A stretch of 64,000 nucleotides of DNA from Patescibacteria group bacterium. GTDB lineage: Bacteria; Patescibacteriota; Patescibacteriia; UBA9934. The stretch is taken from positions 10,446-74,445 of the forward strand of contig JBAZUI010000003.1 of assembly GCA_041661425.1 (NCBI GenBank). The letters are read 5' to 3'. Position 1 is the first letter of the stretch. Each line of letters starts with the position of its first letter. A model generated the notes under the pieces. That model was given only the letters and a program-made list of their open reading frames with translations, was not told the origin of the DNA and did no database searches. A program made the translations under genes and the position numbers. Shown in pieces: positions 2,631-49,140 of this stretch.

Positions 2631-2631
2631 C

Positions 2632-8600: not shown

Positions 8601-11600
8601 GACTGTCAGCGCTCTTTATCCGAATATCTACATTCTTTCTTACAATGAAGGGGCGAGTGATGATACCATTGAAATTTTTAATCAAATCGTTGCCAATCTT
8701 TCGCTCATGACCAATGTTTCTTCCGCGGGTTTCTGTACCATTGTCAATAACAAATGGACCATTGGGGGCGCCTATACCACAACCACCTGTTCCTCGGATT
8801 TTGATTGTGGCGTTGGTGAGACTTGTGGGGATGTGCGTTCAAAAATTCAACGTGATGCCGCGCGCCTTACGGATCTTCGCACAATTGAAAATGCCTTAGC
8901 CGTCTACGGGGCAAGCAACGGCACTTGCTCGGCCACGACTTCACAACGTTGTACCAAATCAAGCGATTGCCCGACCGATGAATCATGTACGCCGTCGTAT
9001 CCGCAACTTGAGAGCGGAACGTACGTTCGGAGCCTTGTTGTGAGTTCATGGTCATCGTGGAATGAAGCGTTTGGAAAAACATTAGGTACCACTCTTCCGC
9101 TCGATCCAATCAATGAAGCTCCGGCTTGCGGAGTGGCGGATTCTTCTTTTGAGTCCTATGAAGCCGATACGTGCGTGAACACGACGACTGGTGCGTATCT
9201 TTGTCCTCTCAATTCCTATGCGTATCACTATCGTTCACTCGGCCCAAATGATTTTGATCTTACGGCTGAACTTGAATATCGTCTGGCGGATTGGGTCTAT
9301 GATATTGATACCTCCACGACGTATGATTTGATCGTTGGCGGGAATACCAGCACAAAAGTGGAAGGGTTTACCGGTGGAACGGCTTATTGCGATTCCTCAA
9401 CGGTCTATGGAAGCTCTTCGAGTTGCGGAGACGGTATTGTTGGCTCTGGAGAGACGTGTGAACTCGGTGAGGTGGGTCCATTGGTGAGCTGCACGGATAG
9501 TGCCGGGTTCTCGGGAACTTCGACACAAGTGTGTAACGCAACCTGCAAGGGGTGGACCTTGCCGACCGGTGCCACGTGTACGGCGTATTCCTGTGGAAAT
9601 GGACTTGTGGAATCGGGAGAAATTTGCGATGACGGTTCGCTCAATGGCACGTATGGTTTTTGCGGGTACGATTGCACGTATGGTTCTGGATTCTCTTGCG
9701 GTGATGGTTCGCTCGCAAGCGGAGAATTCTGTGATTGTGGATCCGCGACATCAAGCGGACGCACATACGGCGGGGGATTGTGTACCACGTACGGCGTTTT
9801 GAATGGGTCGTACCAAACAAATCCGGCGAATTCTTGTTCTTGGGATTGTACGGGCCCGGCGAGTTATTGCGGTGACGGTGCGGTTGACTCTGGTGAGGAA
9901 TGCGATGGGAATGTTGAAACCTATTCCGGACTTCTTTGTCGGCAAGGAATAACAAATATTGGAAGGACACAATCATCGAATGTCGGGAAAACATGTTTAC
10001 AAGATTCTGATTGTGGCACATTGGGTCGGTGTGGTGGAGTGGGGTCAGAACCGGTTTATGATGCTTGCCCAAACACAACGGTGTGTCTTTTGGGAGACGT
10101 AAATCTTCTTGGCTCGGCCTGTACCGTTGATAGCGATTGCGACAGCGTCGAAGGGGATGATGGCGTGTGTTCCGATGACGCGTTCCAAACAACACGAACC
10201 CGTACGTGTGCGGATGATGGCGCGAGCGGTGATGCGTGCACATGGGAAAGTCAATGGATGGATTTGGGGTGCAAGGCAGAAGTTCTTTGTGGAAATGGAG
10301 TGGTCGATAGTGGCGAAGCGTGCGACGATGGCAATGATTCCAATACTGATGACTGCACCGTGCAATGTACAAACAATTATTGCGGCGATGGCTATCTTTA
10401 CGAAAGTGTAGAGGAGTGTGATGAAGGATCATTGAACGGTGTTTCTTGTTCCTCAGCCTATGAAGCCGGGTGTTCCTATTGTTCGGAATCTTGTCTTTCG
10501 GTTGCGGAGAGCGGAACGTTCTGTGGTGATGGTGTCCGAAACGGAGGAGAGTATTGTGATGCCGGCGATATGCCTTACCTTTATGTGAACAACGATGGAT
10601 CGTTTAACGGAACGTGTGAATCAAGTGAGAAGGGCGAGAGCACGAGTGATGGTACGAGCACGTATTATTGTGCAAATGTTGGGGTCTGCGACGGAGGATC
10701 AGAGCAGGGAGATGTCTGCATCGCCTTTAGCACCGTCGCCATAGACTCGCTTTCCGTAGTGCTCTCAGATCTTTCTTCCTGCCCTGGTGGCACCTGTGTT
10801 TATCCATCATGTTCTCCAACGTGTGAGAGCAGCTGTCCGTTTACCAATGAATCAACGTCCATTCTCATGACCACGAATACGGATCGGACTAATCCGGTCG
10901 AGGAGATCTCGCTCGAGACCTACGGCATGCTCTCGGTTGATCGTGATGCGGGAACCATCATTCCAACCGCAGGAACACTTATGATGCCGGCATGCTCGAG
11001 CGCGAACAGTTTGCGCGCCAAGGTTTCATTTGAAGATTTTACTCGTCCACAAAATTATCTTGTTTTCGTTACGGATCTCTCTGCCTCCATGGCAACGACA
11101 TTCGAGAGCGGCGAGACTCGGCTCGAGGTGACAGAAGAGAGTATTCTTACTGCCGGAAAATCCCTCTTTAATGCATTAGGAGAAATGATTCGCGTGAGCA
11201 CGGTTGGGTATCAAGGTGGGAATGTTTATCTTCCCGGCGATGTTATTTCTGGCTATTCCGCGGGTGATGGGTTTATCAGCTCAGAAGCCTACGATGATCT
11301 CGCAACTGTTATTGCCTCTTATAGTCCCGGGGGCGGAACAAATACCTTCGGTGGTCTAGAGGCGGCAAAGAATCTTCTCGATGGAATCTCCGATGAAAAT
11401 ACACGAAAGATGGTCGTGCTCATGACAGATGGAGATTACACGGAAATTTACGGAGATCCCATGTATATGGCGTGTGTTCTTAAGGACGATGGGATTGAGT
11501 TATTTACAGCAACATTAGCGTCGGGGACACAGAGTACACTCAGCTCCGATGGGAATGAATGCGAAAAATATAAGAATAGCGATGGGACGTATATGAGCTA

Positions 11601-12069
11601 TGAGGATTATCTCAGCATTGCGGATACGCGTGTATCGATGTTTGCAACACTCAGCCTTCGCATTCATCATTTTTTCCATAGTTTTATCTCAACAGTTTTG
11701 GCACGAGGTATGGGAACGCTCGGCTGTGATTCATCGGTTATCCCGTTTGTTATCAATAAAATGGCTTGTTATTCGAGCGGAAATCCAAATCCAGATACGG
11801 GAATCGATTATGCCTATAACGGATCCACAAAAGAAGAATTACAGACGATGTATGAAGAGATTCTCCAATCAATTCTCGGAGTTTCTCTCGGGTTTGTGGT
11901 AAACGGATCAATGGTCACCGGAGCCATACAAGAAGGTACGAGCGTTGAGCTTCCGTGGCCAACGGGCTTTGCCTGTACTGGCGAGGAACAAGAACTCCCA
12001 ATTCGTCTCTTTTTTGAAGGGGAAGGCACGGTGGATATTAGTGATGTCTCACTCAATTATTGTGATTGA
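2632..12069 (+). CDS. Giant (~3145 aa) cell-surface protein: VirB2-like pilin module, poly-Gly linker, Ig-like and IPT/TIG repeats, Cys-rich CxxCDDGN repeats, C-terminal vWA domain
   Basis: In-frame ATG at 2632 lies right after the stop of the upstream paralog, giving MQRFF...signal. N-terminal module is ~50% identical to the 906 gene. ITGTGFG/ITGQNFG/ISGSNFG/IYGDGFG are IPT/TIG motifs. More than 15 CGDG..GE.CDDGN..GDGCS..C repeats (Myxococcus-type cysteine-rich repeat). vWA MIDAS DLSASM...TDGDY near the C-terminus. Confidence 0.7.
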   Translation: MQRFFLSLFMAFTLLTGAGVFQVSHVYAQTESLETVGETAGLSAEDPKVIIGRIIRTGLGVLGIIATLIVLYGGWRYMTAGGDADKVDKAKKILINGGIGLVIILASYAITSFVISSLLNASDGGGGGGGGGGDGGGGLGGGNVATFTVTSIRPSGEVSIRNIKVTATLSRTLSATLPADAILIANESGDLVEGTIVAEGNSLTFTPIEFCPTPNDDLFCFEENTTYTVTISSDLESSTGTSITCGTNCSGTFTSGSLVDTEDPFVSITYPDDGARIPYSLGASMIQAEATDDSEISTISFYENDSLYDVVPASGLDLSDVLLSMNWEWSSSLAENATVALKAIATDLAGNTDSDRISVRLNPAHCYNDVLDADSGETSVDCGGDCGTCDGDACTANLDCASGVCIEGFCVVPPVITSFTPTDAGFGSFVTITGTGFGRSGTVSFTGADGSLLTAQIASCSDGWSSEELVVVVPEGVSDGPLTLVVGGLTEKTDDENGPLLADFTIDSEPTVSLCRLSPSSGYAGSTLTITGQNFGTQIDTSSVLFDGVTPATIKSWKADSIQVTVPSLAGKSYAVTVVNANLSNALSFDLKAASSWESTEAMPVMSAITPTSGGKNQYLTISGSNFGSSIGVVWFENPTSGYTAMGSADFPEACSTTFWSDDEITIMVPESYINDESIAISEHTVFVARQDGKESNSIDFTITTANPTPGICGIVPEEGAPGTSVVIYGDGFGAGEGDIRFYNEARANFSSWNDSEIVTATPAAAKSGPVTVIDENSVKSNGANFLITGSSDLDPVIPFIPKYSWIFSTGNIPLAPEPIFACSETQISGVPNKDFSSNICLNASLYVEFTMPMSTITTDGFVVEACETSTCKNTTVVEGMINQVSSTSVYFYPDELLPSTTYRVTLTTDSQSTDGVPLGNDVSWTFTTGTSGTQCLVEKMYVSPETITVNAIGSTGQFNGVPATADCVPLDSPSYLYTWTINESYASKGSCSPSASSCMKATALAEGTAAVTVKESASGVSGAGSFVIDFTDPEVTAYWPNCTEACVNSAIGARFNTSMDNSLEDAGMVTLSKCENELCANLDAGDLVSAGVVCVAGADGTPCVEMALSPLTTLAANTYYKVMISGEIASLSGVTLTKTNDGEDFSWIFATKNDGTLCSIDRASVEPAEALLNAVGERQSFSVSAYGEPDECSVAGQELVASDYAWVWENPIINDLDVAAWKTVGGALFDADASSVSGCTSSCMASGSDSYDAVCANGALEVGEECEDGNLTEGDGCSAHCLREGKGGGGSCGDGTLNRSASGAGEDCDDGNTKSGDGCSSTCLNEGANAVAGTCGNTSIAYAENQGGEDCDDGNKKSGDGCSSNCVNEGSRSYAELFAVCGDGAVTVPYESCDDGNGLNEDGCSSSCVREGTIVGMTCGNGAVERLSSNAGEDCDDGNTVDGDGCSSQCTFEGSSSSYVTPSVCGDGHAGIGEDFNCELLASGDGNIDPIQDAEIMNTAVDLVDTETQRATATIRVKELTSSVGSASTLSLSCVAETAEDCPSASLYGVSENGCCLPRPTATLMPNSNDVCLNASVYAIFSQEMDLASFTDRVYLQLDTTVIGTCPTSSGYEVYTPSTTTASSFIQKVFSFVVSSMFAQSTGPCILPIVSSSQEALTDGSYKVTFRVEHPLYPETQHMLVIFGDQTSRDLSLLVGGLSLSGSTDSTSEWLGVVDSHGIGLYLTTVQTFTTTDSMCRLDEVIITDSADAPGMFTSANESHDFSADAYSYQTGSRQEIASLPGVYAWKWDPWQSSDSTIAVIDSSSEDTAVISSLETSGSSTIIASAAVTEDAVGTDETDALTRSDDYQVEVSICNMPWPDYANYPFIDDATGTVDGTKKGIAWMNFSTHYCRDAGLPSVSVIAPPETKSENVIKEYLLKVDDGSGDAIGLRIASNEDYLPPELWYRAQGFAGSPSNENVDGFEAVRDGRTVYISAPNYVAALSADKRKSTVSALYPNIYILSYNEGASDDTIEIFNQIVANLSLMTNVSSAGFCTIVNNKWTIGGAYTTTTCSSDFDCGVGETCGDVRSKIQRDAARLTDLRTIENALAVYGASNGTCSATTSQRCTKSSDCPTDESCTPSYPQLESGTYVRSLVVSSWSSWNEAFGKTLGTTLPLDPINEAPACGVADSSFESYEADTCVNTTTGAYLCPLNSYAYHYRSLGPNDFDLTAELEYRLADWVYDIDTSTTYDLIVGGNTSTKVEGFTGGTAYCDSSTVYGSSSSCGDGIVGSGETCELGEVGPLVSCTDSAGFSGTSTQVCNATCKGWTLPTGATCTAYSCGNGLVESGEICDDGSLNGTYGFCGYDCTYGSGFSCGDGSLASGEFCDCGSATSSGRTYGGGLCTTYGVLNGSYQTNPANSCSWDCTGPASYCGDGAVDSGEECDGNVETYSGLLCRQGITNIGRTQSSNVGKTCLQDSDCGTLGRCGGVGSEPVYDACPNTTVCLLGDVNLLGSACTVDSDCDSVEGDDGVCSDDAFQTTRTRTCADDGASGDACTWESQWMDLGCKAEVLCGNGVVDSGEACDDGNDSNTDDCTVQCTNNYCGDGYLYESVEECDEGSLNGVSCSSAYEAGCSYCSESCLSVAESGTFCGDGVRNGGEYCDAGDMPYLYVNNDGSFNGTCESSEKGESTSDGTSTYYCANVGVCDGGSEQGDVCIAFSTVAIDSLSVVLSDLSSCPGGTCVYPSCSPTCESSCPFTNESTSILMTTNTDRTNPVEEISLETYGMLSVDRDAGTIIPTAGTLMMPACSSANSLRAKVSFEDFTRPQNYLVFVTDLSASMATTFESGETRLEVTEESILTAGKSLFNALGEMIRVSTVGYQGGNVYLPGDVISGYSAGDGFISSEAYDDLATVIASYSPGGGTNTFGGLEAAKNLLDGISDENTRKMVVLMTDGDYTEIYGDPMYMACVLKDDGIELFTATLASGTQSTLSSDGNECEKYKNSDGTYMSYEDYLSIADTRVSMFATLSLRIHHFFHSFISTVLARGMGTLGCDSSVIPFVINKMACYSSGNPNPDTGIDYAYNGSTKEELQTMYEEILQSILGVSLGFVVNGSMVTGAIQEGTSVELPWPTGFACTGEEQELPIRLFFEGEGTVDISDVSLNYCD

Positions 12070-21064: not shown

Positions 21065-24000
21065 GTGAAGTATAATAAGGATCGTGTGATTTTGACATAT
21101 CAACGGAGATGTTCACGTGCTCTCACGTTCCTATTGTTTTGTTGTTTTTGGTTTTCTTGGTTTCCGATGTCTCCTGTTTTTGCAGCAACAAGCGTCACGT
21201 ATTCATCGCAGGCGGAATTGGAGAGCGCGATTTCTCAGACCGGTTCTGATTCAACGACCACCCCGGGAGCATTGACGCTTACTGCACTTGCAACCGATGC
21301 CAATCCAGTGGCGGAAACTCGTGATGTCGCTTTACTTGTCTCTGATGATGGCGTGGTGGATGCGGATATTGATTTTTATCTGAGTGCGTATTTTCCGAAT
21401 TTTGATTCTGATGGGGATGAAGCCGTTGATGATGTCTTGGAGTTTGCCGATGTTGATGAATTGAGTGATCTCTCAGGATATGAGATTGTCGTCACCGACA
21501 CTGAAACAACCACGCAAGCGGCAACGGTCCCGCAAGATGTCCTCGATGCGTTTGCAACGGCAGGCGGACTCGTTATTGAAAATATCATTGAATATAGCGT
21601 TCAACGTCAGGCCGATACGTATGAATCGGAAGTGAGTTTTGATTATACAACCGCGGCTATTCGCGATCTGGCTTCCGATGGAACGTATCTTTGGACGCTC
21701 GATGATACATCCCCTGAGCGAATTTTAAAAATTGATCCGGCCGATGGCTCAACAATTGCCACGTATTGCGCTCCAGATACAACGCCTCGCGGAATCGAAT
21801 ATGTCAATAATACGTTGTATATTGCCGATTCATTCGCAGATAAACTGTATGAACTTGATCCCGCAAGTTTGACGGTTTTTGATAGCGTTTGCGCCGCGCC
21901 CTATGAGGGTAATCATTATCATTTTTCCGATTTGAGTCCTGTGTCCGGAAGTCCGTGGGGACTTGCCTCAGATGGAGTGAATTTTTATCTTGTCGATTCA
22001 ACAACAGTGCGTCTTCATGCGTTTACCATTTCCGGCTCCTCTCTTGTTCAATCAAACTCTTGGCTTCTCACAAGCCTTACTCCACGCCCTGCCACTCTCC
22101 CTCGAGGGTTGGCGTATAACGGAGGGTATCTTTGGTACGCTGATTCCACGACCGGGCTCATTTATAAATTATCGCCGTCCGATCCGTCGGTCACGGTAAC
22201 GGCATACGATGCCTGGGATCAGTGGGGAAGCGATGAAGACCCGACGGGTCTTGCTTTCATTGATGGCGATCTTTGGGTGACTGATGACGATCCCACGGTC
22301 AAGAAACTTTATAATCATTCGAGTTTTTATCTCGATAAAGACAGCTACGAATATTTCAATAAAGGGAATACCTCATTTGAAACTCCGAGCGTTCAACCGA
22401 AAGGATTGGCATACGATGGAACGTATTTTTGGCTCGCGGATGATTATACAAATACCATTTATAAATTAAACGCTTCCACGGGCGCGGTTGTTTCTTCCTG
22501 TATTGCTCCGTATTCTCGACCAAGTGGGGTTGCCTATTATTCAGGGACACTCTGGGTTTCGGATTGGGGATCAGATCTGGTGTATCTTGTGAATCCAACA
22601 ACGTGTGCGGTCTCGAGTTCGTGGGCCGCGCCTAGCACGGGATCACATGGGATTGCGCATGATGGAACAAATCTCTGGCTGGCGGATTCCGATTCGGATT
22701 TGATTTATAAATTGAATCCAACAACCGGGGCTGTCACGTCTTCTTTTGCCGCACCCGGGCCGGCTTCGAGAGGTCTTGCCTATGAAGATGGTTCGTTGTG
22801 GGTCGCGGATGAAACCGATGAAACCTATTATAAACTCAATCCAACCGACGGGAGCACGCAACTCACAAGAACAGTTGTCGAACTCACAGTTGAGGGAATT
22901 GCCTTTGTTGACGGACGGCTCTGGTCTGTTGATGAAACGCAAGATCGTATCTATAACGTTGATAGCAATAATCTTGCCATGGGGCAATACGATGCCCCGG
23001 CAACCAATCCGCGCGGGTTTACCACAGACGGCACGAATATTTGGGCCGTGGATTCCACTTCCGATAAGCTGTATAAACTCGATGACGAAACATGGGCCGT
23101 GAGTGCGACCTATGATGCCCCGGCGCTCGATCCCATGGACATTACCTATGGAGGAGGATATCTCTGGATCACAACCGATGCTGATAATAAAATTTATAAA
23201 GTTGATCCCGCAACCGGTGGATCGGTTTCTTCATTTGCAACTCCGGATTCCGATCCGTACGGGTTGGTGTATGTGGATTCCTATCTCTATCTCACGGATA
23301 CCATCGAAAATTTATTTTATAAAATCGATCCGACTGATGGATCGAACGATCAAGAATGGGATGCGCCTGGGAGCTCGCCAGGGCCTCTTGCCTATGACGG
23401 AACTTCCATTTGGAACTTCGATACGGATGAGCGTATTTTGTTTGAATTGGAATTGGATGATGATGTGGGAGGGACGATTTCCGCTACGCAAGAGGTTACG
23501 ACCTCCGGGATTCAAGGAATCGAATTTATCGGAGGAGTCCTCTATACCGTTGATACGTATTTCGACATGTTCTTTGATGCCGATACGATTTCGGTCGAGC
23601 CGACCGCGATCATCGAAGTCGCAGACGATTATACGAGCCCGTATTCCGTGGATGACTCCTTTTACTACACAACGCGAAGCACAAGCGAAGGATTCTTTTT
23701 GCATCGCCGGTTAGGTGGGGTACCCGAGACAGCGAGCCGGCAAATTCTCGCTTCCTCAAGTCGAGGAGGCGCTGTTTATGTTCATGAAGATGTGGGTGCG
23801 GGAGATATTTTCGCTCTCGATCTTGTTCTCCTGGGAGATAATTACGAAGTGTCTCGTCAAACCGTTCCGGCCGTCACGCTCTTCTTCGATGCGCTGGGAA
23901 TAAAAATTCACAGTGAAGGCACGCAGGAAAATACGAAACCGACCTATGCTTCACCTTCCACGGATCTGAGTAATCTTATGACAAGTTGTAGTGCGGCATT

Positions 24001-26563
24001 CGTACGGACAACGATCGGCACTTCCAGCAATGGTCAGCCGATCTACGCCTATTCGTACGGAACCGATGGAAAACCGGTTGCCATCTATTTGTCGGGTGTT
24101 CACGGAAATGAAGAGCATGCCTACATTCCTGAGGTGCGCTGGATGCAAAATCTCTGCACGGATTATTTGGCAGGAACAGATCGTGCGCTGAATTTGTTCC
24201 AAAATTTTGAGGTTATTTTTGTTCCGCTTCTCAATCCATACGGGATCGCGAACGGCACTCGTTACAACGCGAATTATGTCGATCTTAACCGTAACTTTGA
24301 CTGGAATTGGTCAGCGTATGCGTCATCCTATAAAGGGGCTTCGGTTTTTTCCGAAGTGGAATCACAGGCATTCCGGGATTTGGTATTGGCGCATGAAGAC
24401 GATCTTGTCTTCTTCAACGATGCGCACGCCGCCATGGCCATCGCTCCGGGGATGACGTGGGCGTATCCCACCGGAGCGGTTGCACCGGCTATCATCGAAA
24501 ATGTTTACGATATCTTCAGAACGAAAAACGCCAATCGATGGTTTGAAGAAAAAGCAGGTCTTGGGCGATGGCTGACGTATGATCGTTATACGTTCCAATC
24601 CGATGTTCCGTATATTGAAAACTGGGTCGGATCGTTGGGAATTCCCACGAGCACGAATGAAGTGATGGGGAAAAAAGATGTGGGCACCGGGCGCATGATT
24701 CACACAAGCGATTGGTATTTCAAACATTACGACGCCTCATTCGACGCCCTCTCCTCTCAATACGGTCGTTCGGTTTACCGCATTGATGGAACGGTTGATT
24801 CTGTTTTTTCGGCCGCGGTTACTTCAAATGCCACAACCCCGGCGGGAACGAGCATTTTGTTCCGCTATGGTTCGAATGCAACAACCGCCGAACCGACCAC
24901 CTGGTACGACACCTATTCGAGCGTTCCGGCCGGACGATATCTTTTTGCGGAAGTGATTCTTCAACGTGACGCCTACGATGATTCCACGCCAACGCTTGCG
25001 GATTTTACCGTTTCCTATACAACGGCGAATACGGCTCCGACGGTCACAACACCAACGGCTGTCGTGGCCATGGATGGGAGTGGTGAGGTGACGGTTGCGA
25101 CGACGCTCGATGACGCCGATGACGATGATACACTCCAAGCGCTTGTTGAATACTCCCTAAACGGTGGTTCGAGTTATGCGAAAGCAACTATTTCCGAATT
25201 GCCGGCTGATATCACGGCAACCTATGGCACCCCGGACGTGGAAAATGACAATACGTATCAAATCGGGAATGCTGGCGGGTACATCACAAGTTCTTCTGGC
25301 GCGAATGCTTTGACGTTCGTTTGGGATGCCCATACCGATGCCCCAACCGCGGATATTTCAAACGCAAAAATTCGTGTGACTCCTTTTGATGGAACCGATA
25401 TCGGCACACCGGTCGCCTCATCAAATATCACGATCGATAATGCCCATCCTTCCGGTCTCGCGACGCTATCGCGAGGCGCGGTGACGTGGAATTCTCTCAC
25501 GCCAACCTGGGACATCGCCTCTGATTCGCATTTTGATCATTACGAAATCTGGTATGGATTCGTGCAAGCCGATGTGGATAATCGGACGGGGACCGCACAT
25601 GAATGGGATGATTCGGATGATGCCGATCTTCTCTTGGCGGCCACGAGTGCAACGACGATTCCCGGTCTTTCTCCTCTTACAAATTATTATGTGAAACTTT
25701 TTGCTGTCGATACGTACGGCAATGAATCGACCATCGCCTCTGTTGGTATGGGAACCATTAAGAAATCAGAGAGTACGGTGACGGCGAATGTTGGTGGCGG
25801 AGGATCAGGAGGTGGGGGATCGTCAAATCAGATTACATTTTTTGACATTATCCAACAACGTCTCCCAAGTATCGCGACGATCCAAAAAAATACCGCTTCA
25901 CAATTTTTATGGACGACGTCCGGAACGATTTCTTTTGTGAATATCTCTTATTCGCTCGATCAAGGAGCAACGTATGAAAAAATTATTGGTCCAACGCCCA
26001 ATACCGGTTCCTATGATTGGACAACCCCAAAGATTCTTTCGGGATCATCGGTCATGTTTAAAATCGAAGCAACGGATCTTGCTTTGATTATCGATTCAGA
26101 AATTTGCGAAAAAAATATCGCGTCAGGGCGACCGCTTTGGGCTCGTTCGCCCGTGACGGGTGAACTCGAAGAAGTCACCGAAGTTTTTCCCGGCGATTAT
26201 ATCAAGAGTCCATATTTTTCAACGGTCTATTACGTGACCGACGATTACGGGCGCCGACCGTTTATCGATGAAGAGACGTATTTTACCTGGCAAGAATCGT
26301 TTGCAACATTGAAATCAGTGACTGACGCAACGCTCACAACCTTAACGATCGCCGGTCCCATGTTGCCGAAACCCGGAGTCAAGTTGGTTAAAATCGAGAG
26401 TGACCCGCGTGTGTATGAAGTCTTGGAAAATGAAAAAGACCCGTACCGTCCATCGCTCCGCTGGATTTCTTCTGAAGCGGAAGCAACGGAACGATTCGGG
26501 TCGTGGTGGAAGTGGAATATCGTGGATGTACCGGTAACGACGTTTGCGCGATTTGATTTCTAG
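21065..26563 (+). CDS. Giant secreted protein: ~12 beta-propeller-type repeats + M14 zinc carboxypeptidase-like domain + FN3/Ig-like C-terminal region
   Basis: GTG start followed by a signal peptide ending ...SPVFA. Repeats of the form YLW.aD....IYKl.p.tG. M14 motifs GVHGNEEH (HxxE), NPYG, DLNRNF at ~24.0-24.4 kb. Confidence 0.7.
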   Translation: MKYNKDRVILTYQRRCSRALTFLLFCCFWFSWFPMSPVFAATSVTYSSQAELESAISQTGSDSTTTPGALTLTALATDANPVAETRDVALLVSDDGVVDADIDFYLSAYFPNFDSDGDEAVDDVLEFADVDELSDLSGYEIVVTDTETTTQAATVPQDVLDAFATAGGLVIENIIEYSVQRQADTYESEVSFDYTTAAIRDLASDGTYLWTLDDTSPERILKIDPADGSTIATYCAPDTTPRGIEYVNNTLYIADSFADKLYELDPASLTVFDSVCAAPYEGNHYHFSDLSPVSGSPWGLASDGVNFYLVDSTTVRLHAFTISGSSLVQSNSWLLTSLTPRPATLPRGLAYNGGYLWYADSTTGLIYKLSPSDPSVTVTAYDAWDQWGSDEDPTGLAFIDGDLWVTDDDPTVKKLYNHSSFYLDKDSYEYFNKGNTSFETPSVQPKGLAYDGTYFWLADDYTNTIYKLNASTGAVVSSCIAPYSRPSGVAYYSGTLWVSDWGSDLVYLVNPTTCAVSSSWAAPSTGSHGIAHDGTNLWLADSDSDLIYKLNPTTGAVTSSFAAPGPASRGLAYEDGSLWVADETDETYYKLNPTDGSTQLTRTVVELTVEGIAFVDGRLWSVDETQDRIYNVDSNNLAMGQYDAPATNPRGFTTDGTNIWAVDSTSDKLYKLDDETWAVSATYDAPALDPMDITYGGGYLWITTDADNKIYKVDPATGGSVSSFATPDSDPYGLVYVDSYLYLTDTIENLFYKIDPTDGSNDQEWDAPGSSPGPLAYDGTSIWNFDTDERILFELELDDDVGGTISATQEVTTSGIQGIEFIGGVLYTVDTYFDMFFDADTISVEPTAIIEVADDYTSPYSVDDSFYYTTRSTSEGFFLHRRLGGVPETASRQILASSSRGGAVYVHEDVGAGDIFALDLVLLGDNYEVSRQTVPAVTLFFDALGIKIHSEGTQENTKPTYASPSTDLSNLMTSCSAAFVRTTIGTSSNGQPIYAYSYGTDGKPVAIYLSGVHGNEEHAYIPEVRWMQNLCTDYLAGTDRALNLFQNFEVIFVPLLNPYGIANGTRYNANYVDLNRNFDWNWSAYASSYKGASVFSEVESQAFRDLVLAHEDDLVFFNDAHAAMAIAPGMTWAYPTGAVAPAIIENVYDIFRTKNANRWFEEKAGLGRWLTYDRYTFQSDVPYIENWVGSLGIPTSTNEVMGKKDVGTGRMIHTSDWYFKHYDASFDALSSQYGRSVYRIDGTVDSVFSAAVTSNATTPAGTSILFRYGSNATTAEPTTWYDTYSSVPAGRYLFAEVILQRDAYDDSTPTLADFTVSYTTANTAPTVTTPTAVVAMDGSGEVTVATTLDDADDDDTLQALVEYSLNGGSSYAKATISELPADITATYGTPDVENDNTYQIGNAGGYITSSSGANALTFVWDAHTDAPTADISNAKIRVTPFDGTDIGTPVASSNITIDNAHPSGLATLSRGAVTWNSLTPTWDIASDSHFDHYEIWYGFVQADVDNRTGTAHEWDDSDDADLLLAATSATTIPGLSPLTNYYVKLFAVDTYGNESTIASVGMGTIKKSESTVTANVGGGGSGGGGSSNQITFFDIIQQRLPSIATIQKNTASQFLWTTSGTISFVNISYSLDQGATYEKIIGPTPNTGSYDWTTPKILSGSSVMFKIEATDLALIIDSEICEKNIASGRPLWARSPVTGELEEVTEVFPGDYIKSPYFSTVYYVTDDYGRRPFIDEETYFTWQESFATLKSVTDATLTTLTIAGPMLPKPGVKLVKIESDPRVYEVLENEKDPYRPSLRWISSEAEATERFGSWWKWNIVDVPVTTFARFDF

Positions 26564-27027
26564 TTGAGGATTGTTACCGCATACGTCAAGAACGTGGCAA
26601 AACAGACCCAGAGAACATACGGGAAAAGGAGGGCACTGGCGAGTTTTGATGTTTTCCAAAGTGAGAGCGAAAGAAAGAGGACAGAGAGTCCAAGAAGAAG
26701 AGCTTCGATGATCGCAAGAGTAAAGGCATGGATCCCAAAGAAGAGGAGGCTCCAAAGGACGTTTAATGTTGCTTGAAGAAAAAAGAAAAACCAGATCCAT
26801 CTACTTGTCGGTGCCTCGATTTTTTTCTGCATGGCAAGAAGAAGGGAAACAATGGTCAGTACAAAAAGGACCGTCCAAACCGTGCCAATCACGGATCCGT
26901 CGGGCGTCCAAGGGGGAAGAATGAGCGTCTCGTACCAAACCATTCCCTGCGAGGTGATAAAACTCCCAACAACAGCGGTTGCAATGACGGTTAAAATAAT
27001 GACGAGAGACGATTGATAGTTTTTCAT
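26560..27027 (-). CDS. tspO: TspO/MBR tryptophan-rich sensory protein family
   Basis: 155 aa, 5 TM, WYETLILPPWTPDGSVIGTVWTVLF matches the TspO signature. Confidence 0.75.
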   Translation of the reverse strand: MKNYQSSLVIILTVIATAVVGSFITSQGMVWYETLILPPWTPDGSVIGTVWTVLFVLTIVSLLLAMQKKIEAPTSRWIWFFFFLQATLNVLWSLLFFGIHAFTLAIIEALLLGLSVLFLSLSLWKTSKLASALLFPYVLWVCFATFLTYAVTILN

Positions 27028-27821
27028 AGCATGGTTAATGATTCGTGAATAGTTTCTTCAAGCGCGCTTTGTCCGGAAAGAGCGGCAATTCCGACAATCA
27101 TCATCACGCCAAGGAGGGCGGCAAGAAGATAGCGCAGATATTTTTTTTCTTCTCGAGAAACGCGAATGGATCGCGGGACAAGATCCATAAAAATCATATA
27201 CAAGAAAAGACCGGCGGCAATACCCAAAAGCGGAGTCAGGAACGAGACCGCCTGGGAAAGAATAATACCAAGCCCAGCCCCAATGAAGACCGTGGTATTG
27301 GCAAGGCAATTTCTCCACAAGGCTTGCGAGGTTGAGTATCCCGATTCCTTCAGGACGAAGAATTCCGAAATTCCTTGCACGAATTCGTGAATAAAGATGC
27401 TCGCGGCAGTAAAAATTCCAAGACGAAAATCAAGAAAGAAGGCCGGCGCAAGCAAAAATCCATCCGCGATATTGTGAAGCGCATCTCCCAAAAGCACTCG
27501 GTAGGCAGTGGCGTGCGAATGATGCTCATGACATTCATCATGGTGGTGATAGCAATCCGGCACAAAGGATTCAATCGCATAGGCGATGAGTACCCCAAAA
27601 AGAACCGAGCCAATTCCCAGGAGAATTGAGCCATCGGAAAATGTTTCAAGTGCGATGTTTATGGCGATAATAAAAAAAACACCCGCAGAAAAACTCACCA
27701 AGTAATTCATGGAGCGGTGCATCCAGGCCATGAGATGTTTCTGCATGAACAAGATTCCGCCGAGCGAAGCGCCAAGAATGCAAAGACAGGAAAGGATGAT
27801 GGCAAGAATGGGAAGCGTCAT
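27024..27821 (-). CDS. ZIP family metal (zinc) transporter
   Basis: HNIADGF and HEFVQGISEF motifs. His-rich loop DCYHHHDECHEHHSH. Confidence 0.8.
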   Translation of the reverse strand: MTLPILAIILSCLCILGASLGGILFMQKHLMAWMHRSMNYLVSFSAGVFFIIAINIALETFSDGSILLGIGSVLFGVLIAYAIESFVPDCYHHHDECHEHHSHATAYRVLLGDALHNIADGFLLAPAFFLDFRLGIFTAASIFIHEFVQGISEFFVLKESGYSTSQALWRNCLANTTVFIGAGLGIILSQAVSFLTPLLGIAAGLFLYMIFMDLVPRSIRVSREEKKYLRYLLAALLGVMMIVGIAALSGQSALEETIHESLTML

Positions 27822-31628: not shown

Positions 31629-32083
31629 ATTGGATCGCCACACGGGTTCATCTCCCCGGCTTTTCGATGCTCGAAATGCTTCTTGTGGTGGCAACCATTG
31701 GGATTCTTGCCACCATTTCTATCCCGATCTATCGCTCAATCCTCACGGGGAATGAAATGCAAGTCGCGCGTGAAATTCTTGTGCGTGGCCTTCGTGTTGC
31801 AGAGCTTCGCACCCAATCAGGAGCTGAGGATGCATCTTGGGGAGTATTTGCACAAAGCGGTTCCGTGACGATTTTTTCCGGAGCGAACTATGTTGAGCGC
31901 GATCCAACCCTTGATGATATTTATGTCGTCTCCCAAGAACTCAATTTTTCCGGAGATACGGAAGTGACGTTCACCGCCCCGTTCGGTCAGCTTCTCACGG
32001 AAAAAACACTCATCCTCTCTCAAACTGGACATGACTCCATTTCAATTACCATTAATCTTGAAGGAGCAATCGCCTATGAATAG
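31625..32083 (+). CDS. Pseudopilin (GspH/FimT-like) with prepilin cleavage motif
   Basis: ATGA overlap with pilC. PGFSMLEMLLVVATIGILA matches G|F..LE at +5. Confidence 0.7.
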   Translation: MNWIATRVHLPGFSMLEMLLVVATIGILATISIPIYRSILTGNEMQVAREILVRGLRVAELRTQSGAEDASWGVFAQSGSVTIFSGANYVERDPTLDDIYVVSQELNFSGDTEVTFTAPFGQLLTEKTLILSQTGHDSISITINLEGAIAYE

Positions 32084-35000
32084 GCGAGGGTTCGTTGAAG
32101 CGGAAGTGCTATTGGCCGTGACAATTTTTGCGCTTCTTGTCACCACGGTCGGTGGAGTGCTTTATTCGTTACGTCAAAGTGAATATCTTTCTGGGATGAT
32201 GTCGCGTGCAACCTTTCTTGCCGAGGGGGGATTGGAAGCGGTACGAAGTCTTCGTGATCGTGCCATCAATGAAATGATTTACAATCAGAGTGCCGTGGAG
32301 ATAACAGGAAATGCCTGGAGTTTTGTTGGCGAAGGAACAGAAGAAGCGCTCGGTGATTTTACGAGGACGATTACTCTTGAGCCGGTATGTCGAAACGCAG
32401 CTGAGGAAATCACGACGTGCCCTGGAAACCGGACGGACATCTCCATGAAAAAAGTCACGTCAACGATTGATTGGACAACCATTCTTGGAGTTCATCAGTC
32501 TCTTTCCCTCACAAATTTATTATCAAATTGGGGGTCAATGAATTGGATTCAGACAGATTGGTCTGGTGGTTCGGGTCAGACTCTTTGGTCTGATGCAACA
32601 AAATATGCGACCGACGATGGCAATATCGATCCGACGATTTCCGGGGAGGTGAAGCTCGCCATGTCAACGGGAGGTGTTTCCTGTTCATCGAAAGTTTGGG
32701 ATTTTTCCACATCAAGTGAGTATACATTTGACCCGGCGCTTATTGAGGTGACGGGTGGAATGGCGCAACTTAAAAATATCGGTGGCATCTCCATGACAAC
32801 ACTCACGTCTGTTGATTCGTATGCAACTGGCGTCAATGCTTCGCATCCAAATATGGTACACGTTTCTGGAAATGTCTATGCCTATGCCTTTAGCGGTTCG
32901 GGAAATGATGGGTTTATTTCAACGGTGACGATTTCTCCAACAGGAGCCATCACAAAAAGTATTATTGATACATTTGAATACGATACTGTTGATGGGTACG
33001 ACCCTGATCTCATGTATATCTCCGGAAACATCTATGCGGTTGCCTATCGTGGGTCCGGAAATGATGGCTGGGTTGCAACGGTGACGATTTCAACCGCCGG
33101 GGTGATTACAAAAACGGTGATCGATACTTTGGAATGGGATACGGCCAATGGATACGAACCTGATATTTTTCTTGTGTCCGGAAATGTGTATGGGGTTGCG
33201 TATCGGGGAACGGGAAGTGCGGGAATTGTAAAAACGTTTACCATCGATACAGCTGGAAATATCGGAGCAGCGGTGATTGATACTCTCACGTTTGACGCCA
33301 CAGGAAATACACCGTTTGTTCTATCGGTCGGTGCAGGTTATTGGGCAATTGTTTACTCGGGGCCGGGAAATGATGGCTGGATGGCGACCGTCAATATTAC
33401 TTCCGCGGGGATTATTCCCGCAACCATTACGGATAGCTACGAATTTGATCCCTCCAATGGTCAGTATCCATCAATTGGGAGTCTTGGAGGAGATAAATAC
33501 CTGGTGGCCTATACCGGTGCAGCGGGCGACGGGTGGCTTGCAACCTTTGCGGTGAGTTCCACAGGTGTCATTACAAAATCACTTATTGATACCTTGGAAT
33601 TTGACGCAAGTGATGGAACTTATCCTGTCCTTAAAAAGGTCACAGGAACGTTTTGGACGGTTTCTTATACCGGATCTGGGAATGACGGTTTTGTTGTGTT
33701 GGTGAATGCGGCGGCGGATGGAATATTACCCGCGGCAGTCACAGCAAGTCTTGAATATGATCCCACGTATAGTCTTTCGCCATCTGTCGTCTATTTGAGC
33801 GATTATTACTTTGGCATTGCGTATATCGGGAGCGCAAATAATGTGAAGCTCGCAACTTTTTCTGTAACGGGTTCAGCAACGACCTTGTACTCAACAACGA
33901 ATCCCTCGATTTTTCCGACGAGTTCGCAAACCGCGACCAGTTTTGATGAGTGGACATCATTTACCGAAGTCGCCACAAAAGGGACAGGTGAAATTTATTA
34001 TCAACTTTCCGATGATAATGGTGTGACGTGGTATTGGTGGAATGGCACGACCTGGGCCGTGGCAGGAACTGGAAATTATAATTCTGCGACCGTGGTGAAT
34101 TCAAAGATTTATGCTTTTCCGGTTGCCTCTGGGCAAATTAAATTCCGTGCATTTCTTTCGAGCAGCGGAACACAGCAAGTCCAATTAGATTCTGTCACGA
34201 TTGGGTGTAGCGCCATGCAATTCGAAATTGGATCGATCAACGCAAATAATACGTGGCAGACCGTCACAATGCTTCAAAATTATAGTGATCCCATTGTGGT
34301 GGGATCGTATCAAGAAATTGCAAATACCGCGGATATTTCTGTGCGGATTCGAAATGTCACCACCACCACTTTCGACGTCCGTCTCGAGAGTGCAAGCGGA
34401 GCGAGCATCTCAGCTGATCCCGTGACGTATTTTGTGATGGAGCGTGGCGTCTGGACCATTGGGGGATTTAATTTTGAGGCGCAAAAACAAACAGTCGCGA
34501 CCGTTGCCACGGCCTCGAGTTGGGTGGCCGATCAAGTGACATTTCACCGAGGATTTGGGATAGCACCGTTTGTCATGCATCAAGTGATGTCGCAAAGTGA
34601 CTCAAAATGGATCACCACTTGGGTGAGCCAATACGGGACTCGAACAAATCCACCCATTTCAACAGGATTTGGATTGGGGCTCAATGCGGCTGAAGTTGCG
34701 GCAAGTGCAACGCATGGCGCGGAAACCGTGGGTTGGATTGCAACCGACGCAAATGTCGGTGGAACCCTTGGCGGTGTCTTATTCGAAACTCATCTTACCG
34801 GATCAACCGTGCAAGGTCACGATAACGGGTGTTATACAACCCCGTATTCCTATACCTATACCGCAGCTCCAAAGGTGTTGGGTTTTCAACAAACCATGAA
34901 TGATCCCAACGGTGGATGGGCGGTGGTTTGTAGCAATAGTACGGCACAACCAGGATTTCATATCGAGGAAGATTCGGTTCTTGATGCGGAACGGAGTCAC

Positions 35001-35402
35001 GGAACGGAACAAATTGGATTCCTTGCATTTTCAACAGGCACGCGGTATTCCTCCGTTGGCGGTAGTTTGTACCCTCTGTACGGAGAATTGACATCATCAG
35101 CTTTCAATCTAACCGATGTGTCACCGGTGCAAATATTGGAGTGGGATGAAGAGACGACGTCTTGCACGCCGGCATGTACAATAAAAATTCAGGTTCGCAC
35201 CGCACCTGATGTTGCGGGCGCTCCAGGGATTTTTACCTCGTGGTATGGAGCAGGTGGGGTTGGAACGTATTTTACAGATCCTGCCGGATCACTTATTCCA
35301 AAGGATTTGAATTGGAATCAGTGGGTTGAATATCGGGTGGAATTGGCAGGAGATGGAATACAAACCCCGGTTCTCCAAGAAGTTCGTCTCAATTATCGAT
35401 GA
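32076..35402 (+). CDS. Pseudopilin-fused giant repeat protein (1108 aa), candidate pilus-tip adhesin
   Basis: N-terminus MNRRGFVEAEVLLAVTIFALL is a prepilin leader with G-F-x-x-x-E. Then about eight ~45-aa repeats G.vYavaY.G.GNDGw.aTv.I...G.It...IDtlefD. Sits in the minor-pilin gene block. Confidence 0.6.
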   Translation: MNRRGFVEAEVLLAVTIFALLVTTVGGVLYSLRQSEYLSGMMSRATFLAEGGLEAVRSLRDRAINEMIYNQSAVEITGNAWSFVGEGTEEALGDFTRTITLEPVCRNAAEEITTCPGNRTDISMKKVTSTIDWTTILGVHQSLSLTNLLSNWGSMNWIQTDWSGGSGQTLWSDATKYATDDGNIDPTISGEVKLAMSTGGVSCSSKVWDFSTSSEYTFDPALIEVTGGMAQLKNIGGISMTTLTSVDSYATGVNASHPNMVHVSGNVYAYAFSGSGNDGFISTVTISPTGAITKSIIDTFEYDTVDGYDPDLMYISGNIYAVAYRGSGNDGWVATVTISTAGVITKTVIDTLEWDTANGYEPDIFLVSGNVYGVAYRGTGSAGIVKTFTIDTAGNIGAAVIDTLTFDATGNTPFVLSVGAGYWAIVYSGPGNDGWMATVNITSAGIIPATITDSYEFDPSNGQYPSIGSLGGDKYLVAYTGAAGDGWLATFAVSSTGVITKSLIDTLEFDASDGTYPVLKKVTGTFWTVSYTGSGNDGFVVLVNAAADGILPAAVTASLEYDPTYSLSPSVVYLSDYYFGIAYIGSANNVKLATFSVTGSATTLYSTTNPSIFPTSSQTATSFDEWTSFTEVATKGTGEIYYQLSDDNGVTWYWWNGTTWAVAGTGNYNSATVVNSKIYAFPVASGQIKFRAFLSSSGTQQVQLDSVTIGCSAMQFEIGSINANNTWQTVTMLQNYSDPIVVGSYQEIANTADISVRIRNVTTTTFDVRLESASGASISADPVTYFVMERGVWTIGGFNFEAQKQTVATVATASSWVADQVTFHRGFGIAPFVMHQVMSQSDSKWITTWVSQYGTRTNPPISTGFGLGLNAAEVAASATHGAETVGWIATDANVGGTLGGVLFETHLTGSTVQGHDNGCYTTPYSYTYTAAPKVLGFQQTMNDPNGGWAVVCSNSTAQPGFHIEEDSVLDAERSHGTEQIGFLAFSTGTRYSSVGGSLYPLYGELTSSAFNLTDVSPVQILEWDEETTSCTPACTIKIQVRTAPDVAGAPGIFTSWYGAGGVGTYFTDPAGSLIPKDLNWNQWVEYRVELAGDGIQTPVLQEVRLNYR

Positions 35403-38086: not shown

Positions 38087-38163
38087 GGGTCGGTAGTTCA
38101 ATTGGTTAGAGCACCGCCCTGTCACGGCGGAAGTTGCGGGTTCGAGCCCCGTCCGACCCGCCA
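38087..38163 (+). tRNA. tRNA-Asp (GTC)
   Basis: GGGTCGG acceptor stem, anticodon loop CTGTCAC, TTCGAGC T-loop, encoded CCA. Confidence 0.9.
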
Positions 38164-38270: not shown

Positions 38271-38429
38271 AGAATGATGCAGGTGGATAAAATTTCAATA
38301 GGTAGAATGACAGATAGAACGAAGAAAGCCGAGACAGGGGTTAGGGGCTGGAACCCCCTTAAAAACAATTCGAGTCCCGTTTCGCGAGACGAGTAGTCTC
38401 AAGCGATACGGGACTCAGAGAGGTGTGCG

Positions 38430-40082
38430 CTAGTAGTTGGACTTCGTGACCCGCACGGCCGGACATCCACCCGAAGGTGTGTGGCCGGGTCGGGGCACGC
38501 AGTCCTCGAGGAGGGGCGAGCCGTCGACGAGGATCGTGCGATCGCTCACCGTGGCGCCAGCCACCTCGATACGGTAGCGCACTCCATCGATTTTTCCGCA
38601 CCCCACCACCACGCCGGAGTCGTTCCGGTAGGCAATGTAGGTGTGGAAGATCTCCGGCGCCGGAGTTTCTGCCGCGCTGACCTCGGCCACGGTCGTGATG
38701 GCTGGCTCTGATTTCCACTCGGGGAGCTTGGGCCAGCCAACCTCGGGGATCGCGACATCCGGCATGCTCGGACGCCAGGTAGGCATGGCCGGCAGGCTGA
38801 TGGTCGGCGCCTTCGGCCAGGTGATGGCCGGAGCCTTGGGCAGATTCGGGATGGAGATGCGGGGCATCTCCACCTTGGGCCAAGTCCAGGGCTCATTGGG
38901 CGGCGGAGATTCTTCCTCCTCGAGTGCGGTGAGGAGCGCGGGGTCGGGCTTTGCCTCGACCATCACGAGCTTCTCCTGGGGCGCATCAACGAGGATCAAC
39001 CCGTCGAGCTGACCCACGAGCACGAGGACGAGAACGGTGAGTGTGACACCCACTATGAACTCGAACCCCATCGCGACCGCTCCCCACGTCGCGATGCGTT
39101 TGACGAGCGAAGGCTGTCTTGGCCTTGCTTCGCGTGGAGTTGCCGGTGGCGGAGCATAGCGACGCTCCTGTGCCGGGGTCGTACTCCAGGCGAGTAGTTC
39201 CTCGTCTTCCCAGACGTCCCCGTCGGACGCGTTCCTCTCAGGCGCAGGCCTCACGGTCACAACATCATTGGGGTCGATGTCGATCACGATCGGCCGTGGA
39301 ACCCGTGGGGCGTGCTGGGGAGCTGGCGTCCGTTGCTCGGCGAGGACCGGGAGCTGATCCTCCTCCCACTCGACCATCACAGGCCTTGGGCCTGGGGCGC
39401 GGTAGAATTGCCCGAGGTCCGGCATCATCTTCTTGGTCGATCCGATGACTGCTGGGAGCAGCCGCGCATCGCCCGTATCTTCGTCCAGTATGAAGATCGG
39501 GGCTTCTTCGTCGATTTCGATCACCGCCCCATCGGTCGGGTCGGCGTCGGGATCGATGAACTCGAGGTTGCTGAAGTCATCGAGAACAGTTTCCGCCCGG
39601 GACCAGGTACCCTTGGGAGCTGTCCAGATCCCCAGCTCATCCGCGAGAGCCTGGATGTGCCTCTCGAACTCCCTCGAGATCTTCAAGAGGGAGGTCGCGA
39701 TCACTGCGACAGCCTCGGGAATCGGGAAGTCGGAGAGAACATCAGTCTGTTCTTTTTTCATCTTCTCGATGTCGCCCATGGTCGGACGACGGGGAAGGCT
39801 CGCAATGAGCATCCTGTGGTGTGCGAGCATGGTTTCCACGCTCTGCACACCTTCGAGAACTTCGTCGGCACCCACTGCCTTCTTGCAGAATGCAGCGAGT
39901 TCGACTCGAAGGGGCTCGAAGAAGTCGCTGACATCCTTTGGCGGGATTTCCACCTCAATCAGCAGGGATGTCGCGAGCTCCTTGAACACGATGCCTACCG
40001 AGAAGAACGGTGCATCGTCTTTCTGAATGTTCTCGAGACAGGCAACAGCATAACGGACAGAAGCCTTGAAAGTGTCGAGCAT
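38430..40082 (-). CDS. Hypothetical membrane protein of high-GC island 1 (cytoplasmic N-domain, TM, Pro-rich ectodomain with WPK repeats and Cys-containing C-terminal module)
   Basis: GC3 near 90%, unlike host genes. Opposite-strand ORFs are low-complexity mirrors. Confidence 0.5.
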   Translation of the reverse strand: MLDTFKASVRYAVACLENIQKDDAPFFSVGIVFKELATSLLIEVEIPPKDVSDFFEPLRVELAAFCKKAVGADEVLEGVQSVETMLAHHRMLIASLPRRPTMGDIEKMKKEQTDVLSDFPIPEAVAVIATSLLKISREFERHIQALADELGIWTAPKGTWSRAETVLDDFSNLEFIDPDADPTDGAVIEIDEEAPIFILDEDTGDARLLPAVIGSTKKMMPDLGQFYRAPGPRPVMVEWEEDQLPVLAEQRTPAPQHAPRVPRPIVIDIDPNDVVTVRPAPERNASDGDVWEDEELLAWSTTPAQERRYAPPPATPREARPRQPSLVKRIATWGAVAMGFEFIVGVTLTVLVLVLVGQLDGLILVDAPQEKLVMVEAKPDPALLTALEEEESPPPNEPWTWPKVEMPRISIPNLPKAPAITWPKAPTISLPAMPTWRPSMPDVAIPEVGWPKLPEWKSEPAITTVAEVSAAETPAPEIFHTYIAYRNDSGVVVGCGKIDGVRYRIEVAGATVSDRTILVDGSPLLEDCVPRPGHTPSGGCPAVRVTKSNY

Positions 40083-40255
40083 TCTCCCCTCCCGGGGTTT
40101 GCGGTTTTTGTGGTTGGATAACAGAAAGTTTGAAAAGAACAGAGGGGAACATTAACAAAAAAAATGCGTCTTGTCAACGCATGATCTTAAACGAAAATGC
40201 CCCCCGACCGAAGTTAGACTTCAATCGGGGAGCAGGGGCCTGACAGACGGGAGCG

Positions 40256-41782: not shown

Positions 41783-42070
41783 CGGAAACTCCTTGCCCTC
41801 TTGGAGGGCAATGGGGGTGGTGGATATTTGCCAGGGGGTCAGCTTCTCGGTCGACCCCTGGCGGGTTCTTCAGATGTAAATGAAGGAGATCGCCCCTTTT
41901 TGAGGTTTTAAGGCCTCTTAAAGGGACGATTCCAGGCTTGAACTGGACCGGGTATTATAGCAGAAAAACAGCGATTTGTCAATGATTCAAATGAAAAAAT
42001 CGCCTTATCTTGGCGAAATTCATGGGCAGGTCACAGACCTGCCCGTACGCAAATCAATCAAAACAAAAAG

Positions 42071-43637: not shown

Positions 43638-44039
43638 AGCGAAGGTTGGTGGACCTGGGGAGAATTGAACTCCCGTCTGGTCAGTAAATCCTTCACAATT
43701 GTTTTACAAGTTTTGCTCTACTTAATTTGCGTCCAGGGGATCGAAGCAGAGCGAAAATCCCAAGGAACGTTCTGATGGGCCATAGAATGCTTTTCGTCCA
43801 TCAGGAAGCGAAGGCATCCACCTTTGGTTATGACACTCGATCTGATTCTTAAGGTTCAAATCAGGGAGCGGGCGGTCACCTAATTAGGCGACGGCCATGG
43901 CAAGGGAAGGCATGCGGAACATGTCTTTCACCTTTGTGACAACATTGGCATGTGTCGATTGCGCATAGCTATGACGGGAGATGCGCCTCCCGACTTGATT
44001 GGGAAGGGTTAAACTCTGCCATCGATTCCTGGCAGGCCC
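43638..44039 (-). ncRNA. ssrA: tmRNA (ssrA)
   Basis: Minus-strand 5' end GGGCCUGCCAGGAAUCGAUGGCAG matches tmRNA 5' consensus GGGGCUGAUUCUGGAUUCGACGGG. 3' end GGACGGGAGUUCAAUUCUCCCCAGGUCCACCA is a tRNA-Ala-like T-arm/acceptor/CCA. G3:U70 pair. Just downstream of smpB. Confidence 0.75.
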
Positions 44040-48157: not shown

Positions 48158-48158
48158 T

Positions 48159-48755: not shown

Positions 48756-48759
48756 CGAA

Positions 48760-49140
48760 TCGCGACCACCCCTCACCCCTCCTTTGAAAGGAGGGGTCTC
48801 CTTCTGGAGCCTCCCCCTTAAGCAAGGGGGAGTAAAGAGGGGGTTATGAAAACCGTGGGGCGACCGGCCGGTCGCCCATAGTAAGCGAAGTGTATGGGGG
48901 TGTAAATTCGATTTTCTTGACACCGGTTTTCTCCTCTGTTAGGTTTGAACCATGAAGCCCCTTGGAAGGGCTCGGTGGAACGGTCGTGACGCCTCCTCCT
49001 CGTCGCGATTCGTCCCCGCCGAGCCTTTCGAGGGGGTTTTTGTTTTTGGGCAGGTCGCAGACCCGCCCGTACGGCGTGATGTAGGGGCATGGCATGCCAT
49101 GCCCATACGCCAAAGCGCGTTTTTTTGCTCATTTTACCCA
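48760..49140. repeat. BIME-like cluster of GC-rich palindromic units
   Basis: CCCCTCCTTTGAAAGGAGGGG, CTCCCCCTTAAGCAAGGGGGAG, GGGCGACCGGCCGGTCGCCC, GGGCAGGTCGCAGACCCGCCC, GGCATGGCATGCCATGCC in series. Confidence 0.6.

Follow-up and report, generated by a model that had tools for sequence, protein, structure and literature searches.

The described enzymes closest to the catalytic domain discussed here are carboxypeptidase T from Thermoactinomyces vulgaris and the pancreatic-type carboxypeptidases A and B (MEROPS family M14, subfamily A), with which it shares 17–20% identity. MpaA, the murein tripeptide amidase acting on gamma-D-Glu-meso-diaminopimelate (gamma-D-Glu-mDAP; PDB 5hxd and 4axv), is a single-domain protein of ~240 amino acids (aa), and the regulatory (N/E, M14B) carboxypeptidases, for example carboxypeptidase N (CPN) and domain II of carboxypeptidase D (CPD-II), score below the M14A enzymes and carboxypeptidase T. 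We analysed a 64,000-nucleotide stretch of contig JBAZUI010000003.1 from a Patescibacteria group bacterium (GCA_041661425.1; hereafter the window), in which an open reading frame (ORF) at 21065–26563 (+) encodes an 1832-aa protein joining an M14 domain to a long series of propeller blades. The ORF, which an earlier note on this DNA had described from the sequence without database searches, is intact, with a GTG start, a TAG stop, no internal stops and the G+C content of the surrounding sequence. On balance, we favour reading its product as a Sec-secreted, surface-tethered multidomain M14 exopeptidase of ~195 kDa whose propellers would capture the target.

A secreted multidomain M14 peptidase is in itself unsurprising; the novelty is a variant, in architecture and in sequence, of a well-known family, with an unusual triple-propeller front end. 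We know of no characterised M14A enzyme in which propellers occupy ~900 aa ahead of the catalytic domain and a tail of 590 aa follows it.

The M14 domain and its relatives

The catalytic domain is recognised by Pfam PF00246 (Peptidase_M14) over aa 969–1126 with 66.5 bits against a cutoff of 21.6 (E 3.8e-18), and the motifs from which the earlier note had proposed an M14 core are located at aa 1011–1018 (GVHGNEEH), 1057–1060 (NPYG) and 1073–1078 (DLNRNF). His1013 and Glu1016 (HGNE), Arg1066, Asn1075-Arg1076 (DLNRN), His1121 (NDAH), and Glu1199 (NEVxGK) are invariant in the 11 family members, whose M14 domains are 47–69% identical. The His/Glu zinc ligands that the note had seen (His1013 and Glu1016) and the third ligand, His1121, are therefore present throughout the family, and the C-terminal catalytic Glu, whose conservation it had left to be checked, is retained as Glu1199, so that no loss of catalytic residues was found. 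His1013 and Glu1016 correspond to His69 and Glu72 of carboxypeptidase A and align with the HxxE of carboxypeptidases T and A and of MpaA, and His1121 (His196 equivalent, NDAH[AS]) aligns with the His of 'LDIHS' in an insect carboxypeptidase A (PDB 1jqg). Glu1199 (Glu270 equivalent) is matched in MpaA by the Glu within 'ITAEFPP' and 'ITVELPP', which we take to be the catalytic Glu of that enzyme. In a 22-sequence alignment, His1013 and Glu1199 ([NE]EVxGK) are invariant and Glu1016 is conserved in at least 90% of the sequences; Arg1066, Asn1075, and Arg1076, the equivalents of Arg127, Asn144, and Arg145 that bind the substrate carboxylate or carbonyl, are invariant as well. The predicted fold aligns with the carboxypeptidase alpha/beta fold over the whole M14 domain. 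That the zinc-binding residues, Glu1199, and Asn1075-Arg1076 stay invariant in domains only 47–69% identical points to selection on catalysis, and the domain looks active, with catalytic competence predicted from conserved residues and the modelled fold.

The placement of the domain within M14 bears on the substrate. The earlier note had considered a gamma-D-Glu-DAP-type M14 peptidase, and a peptidoglycan stem-peptide hydrolase of the MpaA type (gamma-D-Glu-meso-DAP, M14C-like), acting on the wall of a host or on the cell's own, would agree with several observations. The nearest proteins outside the family in a word-indexed search are small MpaA-like proteins, some of them fused to PG_binding_1 or Amidase_2, two family members (P0007 and P0008) end in a PG_binding_1 domain, HGNE and NANGVDLNRNF resemble MpaA and M14B motifs, and a mixed profile built from the family and 11 MpaA-like sequences ranked Escherichia coli MpaA first (E 7.7e-27). 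We rejected the assignment to MpaA, as the ranking of the mixed profile was biased by the profile's own members and MpaA disappeared when the search was rerun with the family alone: this profile placed carboxypeptidase T and the insect carboxypeptidase A on top (E ~9e-13), followed by carboxypeptidases B and A and by CPN (6e-8), with no MpaA chain among 43 matches at E <= 1e-3. The NCBIfam MpaA equivalog (NF007897) likewise reached 28.4 bits against a cutoff of 157. The gamma-D-Glu-DAP assignment is thus unsupported, and we regard a cell-wall hydrolase of this type as unlikely.

In its details the domain has traits of more than one subfamily. The HGNE and NANxVDLNRNF motifs are more similar to M14B and MpaA than to M14A and carboxypeptidase T, whereas the N-terminal segment and the size of the domain resemble M14A and carboxypeptidase T; compared to MpaA, the domain is ~45 residues longer, including the M14A-like N-terminal segment. 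It further differs from M14A enzymes and carboxypeptidase T in a C-terminal half too divergent for the Pfam model; a recognisable pro-segment was not found, the preceding ~100-aa domain being poorly modelled and without a Propep_M14 match. The beta-sandwich that follows the catalytic domain (aa 1241–1325) is a candidate counterpart of the transthyretin-like domain of M14B enzymes, and CPD-II aligns over only 267 residues with a root-mean-square deviation (rmsd) of 5.9 Å. Among 1.8 billion representative proteins, only five others match at E <= 1e-30 (8e-110 to 4e-72) and the next stands at 2e-25, beyond which nearly all matches align over the N-terminal 150–190 residues alone; the top matches outside the family are generic multidomain M14 proteins. 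Judged by these comparisons, the domain is a distinct, sharply separated M14 subgroup without an assigned subfamily. Because of its affinity to M14A and carboxypeptidase T, ordinary peptides are favoured over cell-wall peptides as the predicted substrate.

Propeller modules and their peptidase partners

The repeats that precede the peptidase had been put at about 12 units of ~45 aa. They are real, and both figures change: a hidden Markov model (HMM) of the blade, seeded with eight regular units, found 15 units between aa 200 and ~850 with a period of ~41 aa in the regular part, and recovered the seven units outside the seed with independent E-values of 5e-14 to 0.02. The similarity between blades peaks at an offset of five, and the three successive groups of five blades (modules A, B, and C; Table 1) align in register, A with B over 230 aa (E 2.6e-29) and B with C over 193 aa (E 4.5e-33). 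In an AlphaFold2 (AF2) model of aa 41–862, the blades have a predicted local distance difference test score (pLDDT) of ~80–93 at a predicted template modelling score of 0.45, suggesting that the blades are well folded and their mutual arrangement is uncertain. Blades 10 and 15 have three modelled strands each, and blade 5 has three and a short strand after an insertion; in the model, this is the pattern expected if each module closes its ring with a strand taken from its own beginning. Furthermore, unrelated proteins with the same blade type (P0014, P0015, P0017–P0020, P0022, and P0023) contain exactly five contiguous blades in ~190 aa. From the in-register modules, the five-blade offset, the strand counts, and the five-blade units of unrelated proteins, we infer that aa 196–852 form three tandem five-bladed propellers.

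The best Pfam match of the repeats is DUF6923 (PF21959), with 73.1 bits against a cutoff of 27 in three stretches, overlapped by weaker matches to Vgb_lyase, Glu_cyclase_2, PQQ_2, and NHL. The common NHL or YVTN families, which the earlier note had named as a possible refutation, do not account for the repeats: NHL reaches 21.6 bits (cutoff 20) over the whole protein with no single stretch above the threshold, and YVTN (TIGR02276) scores 9.8 against 27.85. A Foldseek search with the propeller model returned generic tandem propellers alone (LRP4, LRP2, and WD40) and no functional lead. The weaker matches raise the question of whether the propellers are themselves enzymatic, similar to glutaminyl cyclase or Vgb lyase, which would make the protein bifunctional. 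Glutaminyl cyclases of plants and bacteria fold as five-bladed propellers, Glu_cyclase_2 (PF05096) passes its cutoff of 22.3 with 33.4 bits, Vgb_lyase reaches 41.5 bits, and two relatives are named 'glutamine cyclotransferase' by the Joint Genome Institute. However, the cyclase match (aa 569–719) straddles modules B and C, out of register with any single propeller, and is much weaker than that of DUF6923, while Vgb_lyase stays below its cutoff of 50 and the NCBIfam Vgb model reaches 26 against 600. Both matches look like generic blade similarity, and enzymatic propellers appear highly improbable.

Single five-bladed DUF6923-type propellers are also found in very large secreted metagenomic proteins (P0014–P0023), some of which carry dockerins. 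Modules of this type adjoin clostripain (C11), subtilase (S8), legumain (C13), gingipain (C25), and M14 domains. The blade type is the same as here; in these multi-peptidase proteins, however, it forms a single ~190-aa module, whereas the protein described here has three tandem copies of it, N-terminal to the peptidase. As they accompany peptidases of several catalytic classes, DUF6923 modules may have an accessory role, and the comparison suggests a general substrate-capture module of extracellular proteolysis. The recurrent pairing may therefore point to the role of DUF6923, a domain of unknown function.

The same pairing bears on whether the protein is mainly an adhesin or host-recognition factor, attaching through its propellers and immunoglobulin-like (Ig-like) and fibronectin type III (FN3) domains, with M14 as a binding module or a minor activity. 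Propellers (~650 aa) and beta-sandwich domains (~500 aa) do dominate the protein, the window also encodes type IV pilus genes and a second giant, probably surface-located protein, and the C-terminal half of M14 escapes recognition by Pfam. Against this stand the association of the same propeller type with peptidases of several classes and the invariance, across a family as divergent as this one, of the residues that bind zinc, of the catalytic Glu, and of the Asn-Arg pair for the substrate carboxylate, which make a mainly adhesive function distinctly unlikely.

Predicted secretion, accessory domains and proposed function

The N-terminus has basic residues followed by a hydrophobic run (ALTFLLFCCFWFSWF) and a predicted cleavage site between VFA and ATS, and this is the sole hydrophobic segment in the 1832-aa protein. 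In homologues, too, a signal peptide of this kind precedes the mature N-terminus, which is conserved as A[AT][ST]VTY[ST]SQAE. These three features support Sec-dependent secretion as predicted, in agreement with the earlier description of a secreted protein. In-frame starts that keep the signal peptide are GTG 21065, GTG 21086, and TTG 21092, the last preceded by AAGGA at 21077–21081; the true start is probably TTG 21092 or one of the two GTG codons (21086/21065), behind this AAGGA. The identical NCBI protein (P0001, 1798 aa), named 'MAG: DUF2817 domain-containing protein [Patescibacteria group bacterium]', was modelled from ATG 21167 (Met35), which cuts off the signal peptide that all homologues retain.

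Table 1. Positions of the ORF and of the features of its product in the window
Feature	Residues (aa)	Position	Strand	Remarks
Complete ORF	1–1832	21065..26563	+	1832 aa; mature protein ~195 kDa, pI 4.1
Signal peptide (predicted)	1–40	21065..21184	+	predicted cleavage between VFA and ATS
N-terminal alpha/beta domain	41–195	21185..21649	+	36–66% family identity; AF2 pLDDT ~70–88 at aa 85–170
Propeller module A, blades 1–5	196–444	21650..22396	+	most degenerate module, with insertions
Propeller module B, blades 6–10	445–648	22397..23008	+	regular 41-aa blades
Propeller module C, blades 11–15	649–852	23009..23620	+	best DUF6923 stretch, aa 652–782
Middle domain	853–955	23621..23929	+	39–68% family identity
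M14 zinc carboxypeptidase catalytic domain	956–1240	23930..24784	+	PF00246
Key codon	His1013	24101..24103	+	
Key codon	Glu1016	24110..24112	+	
Key codon	Arg1066	24260..24262	+	
Key codons	Asn1075-Arg1076	24287..24292	+	
Key codon	His1121	24425..24427	+	
Key codon	Glu1199	24659..24661	+	
Beta-sandwich after the catalytic domain	1241–1325	24785..25039	+	34–80% identity, all homologues; AF2 strands, pLDDT ~80
Ig-like or other beta region	1326–1461	25040..25447	+	in closest homologues alone; no Pfam match
Fibronectin type III	~1462–1560	25448..25744	+	PF00041
Gly/Ser linker	1577–1587	25793..25825	+	GGGGSGGGGSS
C-terminal module	1590–1832	25832..26560	+	243 aa; also C-terminal in other Patescibacteria proteins

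A conserved core common to all 11 homologues (aa 41–1325) comprises the N-terminal alpha/beta domain, the propellers, the middle domain, M14, and, as its last part, the beta-sandwich. For the N-terminal domain, Pfam gave no match and a PDB sequence search nothing meaningful. The middle domain could be considered a pro-segment, as Foldseek aligned ~70 extra columns with procarboxypeptidases; this extension has an rmsd above 9 Å on a segment with a pLDDT of 37–56, and a Pfam scan of aa 851–961, Propep_M14 included, found no match at E <= 10; PDB sequences gave no match to the middle domain either. We therefore did not adopt this tentative assignment. A Pfam scan of the concatenated N-terminal and middle domains, treated as halves of one domain, also found nothing.

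Behind the core, the FN3 domain and the poly-Gly linker proposed in the earlier note are both present: PF00041 scores 31.6 bits against a cutoff of 25 (E 2e-7) on the isolated segment and 22.8 bits in the full-length scan, and the linker reads as given in Table 1. The C-terminal module has no Pfam or PDB sequence match; five homologues of it (P0036–P0040) are 42–61% identical, and two of these carry a Peptidase_S8 (subtilase) domain. It is a recurrent unannotated C-terminal domain of secreted Patescibacteria proteins and a candidate for cell-surface retention. The tails diverge among homologues: besides the two that end in PG_binding_1, one (P0011) has chitobiase-associated domains, and another (P0009) has hydrophobic, transmembrane-looking segments and CarboxypepD_reg domains. 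Such swapping of tails behind a constant head suggests a role of the tail in placing the protein on the cell surface.

From the N- to the C-terminus, the order of the protein is alpha/beta domain, three predicted DUF6923-type propellers, short conserved domain, M14, beta-sandwich, and lineage-variable tail. In the function we propose, the tail would keep it on the cell surface and the propellers would bind a protein or polymer target, while the M14 domain would cut C-terminal residues off peptides or proteins by the standard mechanism of zinc and a general base (Glu1199). Plausibly, the amino acids set free in this way would benefit a cell that can make little itself. Biosynthetic capacity is minimal in Patescibacteria, which are believed to depend on other cells, so that a part in acquiring nutrients or in interacting with a host may be considered for their large secreted enzymes.

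Several points weigh against this proposal. PF00246 is matched at profile positions 6–187 of 286 alone, and the C-terminal half of the catalytic domain is therefore divergent. Candidates for the Tyr248 equivalent (Tyr1172, Tyr1175, and Tyr1183) are mostly conserved in a loop whose alignment is unreliable; with this residue and the specificity pocket unassigned, catalytic competence is judged from the sequence and the predicted fold. Carboxypeptidase activity is a prediction, as are the arrangement of the catalytic residues around the metal and the count of five blades in each ring. The middle domain is poorly modelled, the evidence for surface tethering by the C-terminal module is solely its recurrence, and two homologue loci (P0011 and P0003) have no neighbours in common with the window, and thus no operon partner that might hint at a pathway.

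There is also a slim chance that the protein is a host-directed tool of episymbiotic Patescibacteria, in which the propellers would recognise a specific structure on the host surface, for example an S-layer, a pilus, or a protein associated with the wall, and M14 would act where the two cells touch, trimming exposed C-termini or cell-wall peptides. If so, it would feed the symbiont or open the host envelope and represent a new, functionally distinct, lineage-specific M14 subfamily.

Distribution and neighbouring genes

Among 5.8 billion clusters, we found 11 proteins with this architecture, and all named ones belong to Patescibacteria. A scan of GTDB representatives found a full-length relative in at least one genome, one among the matches listed. 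Public databases already label the protein as family M14 or DUF2817. Our literature search returned no mention of DUF6923, nor of M14 together with 'Candidate Phyla Radiation', and nothing relevant to this family.

The gene stands alone, flanked by opposite-strand genes for a DNA-alkylation-repair protein upstream and for TspO and a ZIP transporter downstream, and genes for FtsA, FtsZ, pyruvate kinase, a response regulator, and a PilB-like ATPase are nearby. The TspO/MBR and ZIP zinc transporter genes (26560–27821, -) thus lie directly downstream of a gene for a zinc peptidase, on the opposite strand. The ZIP gene is the second one downstream; two homologous loci lack this pairing, and the adjacency is therefore probably coincidental.

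Elsewhere in the window, a giant ORF at 2530–12069 (+) encodes 3179 aa with a T4SS-pilin-like N-terminus, TIG/IPT repeats, DUF4215, Big_5, and a C-terminal VWA domain, and is probably a surface or pilus-associated adhesin. An ORF just downstream of the PilB-like genes (32031–35402, +; 1123 aa) has no Pfam match at E <= 1e-3.

Finally, two islands are rich in G+C. The first (~38400–41900; 0.60–0.69 vs. ~0.48 elsewhere) adjoins a tRNA (38087–38160, +) and a tmRNA (43647–44039, -) and contains two Ala/Pro/Asp-rich ORFs (38430–40082 and 40256–41782, both -), each with one hydrophobic, transmembrane-looking segment, as identified by eye, and no Pfam match; the island may have been acquired or may stem from a chimeric assembly. 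In the second (~48000–52100; 0.56–0.64), long ORFs overlap on both strands, as expected at high G+C. One ORF at 50799–52016 (+) encodes Cys/Asp-rich repeats of the Cu-binding_MopE type (E 3e-31), which are encoded by a 141-bp tandem repeat at 50981–51366.
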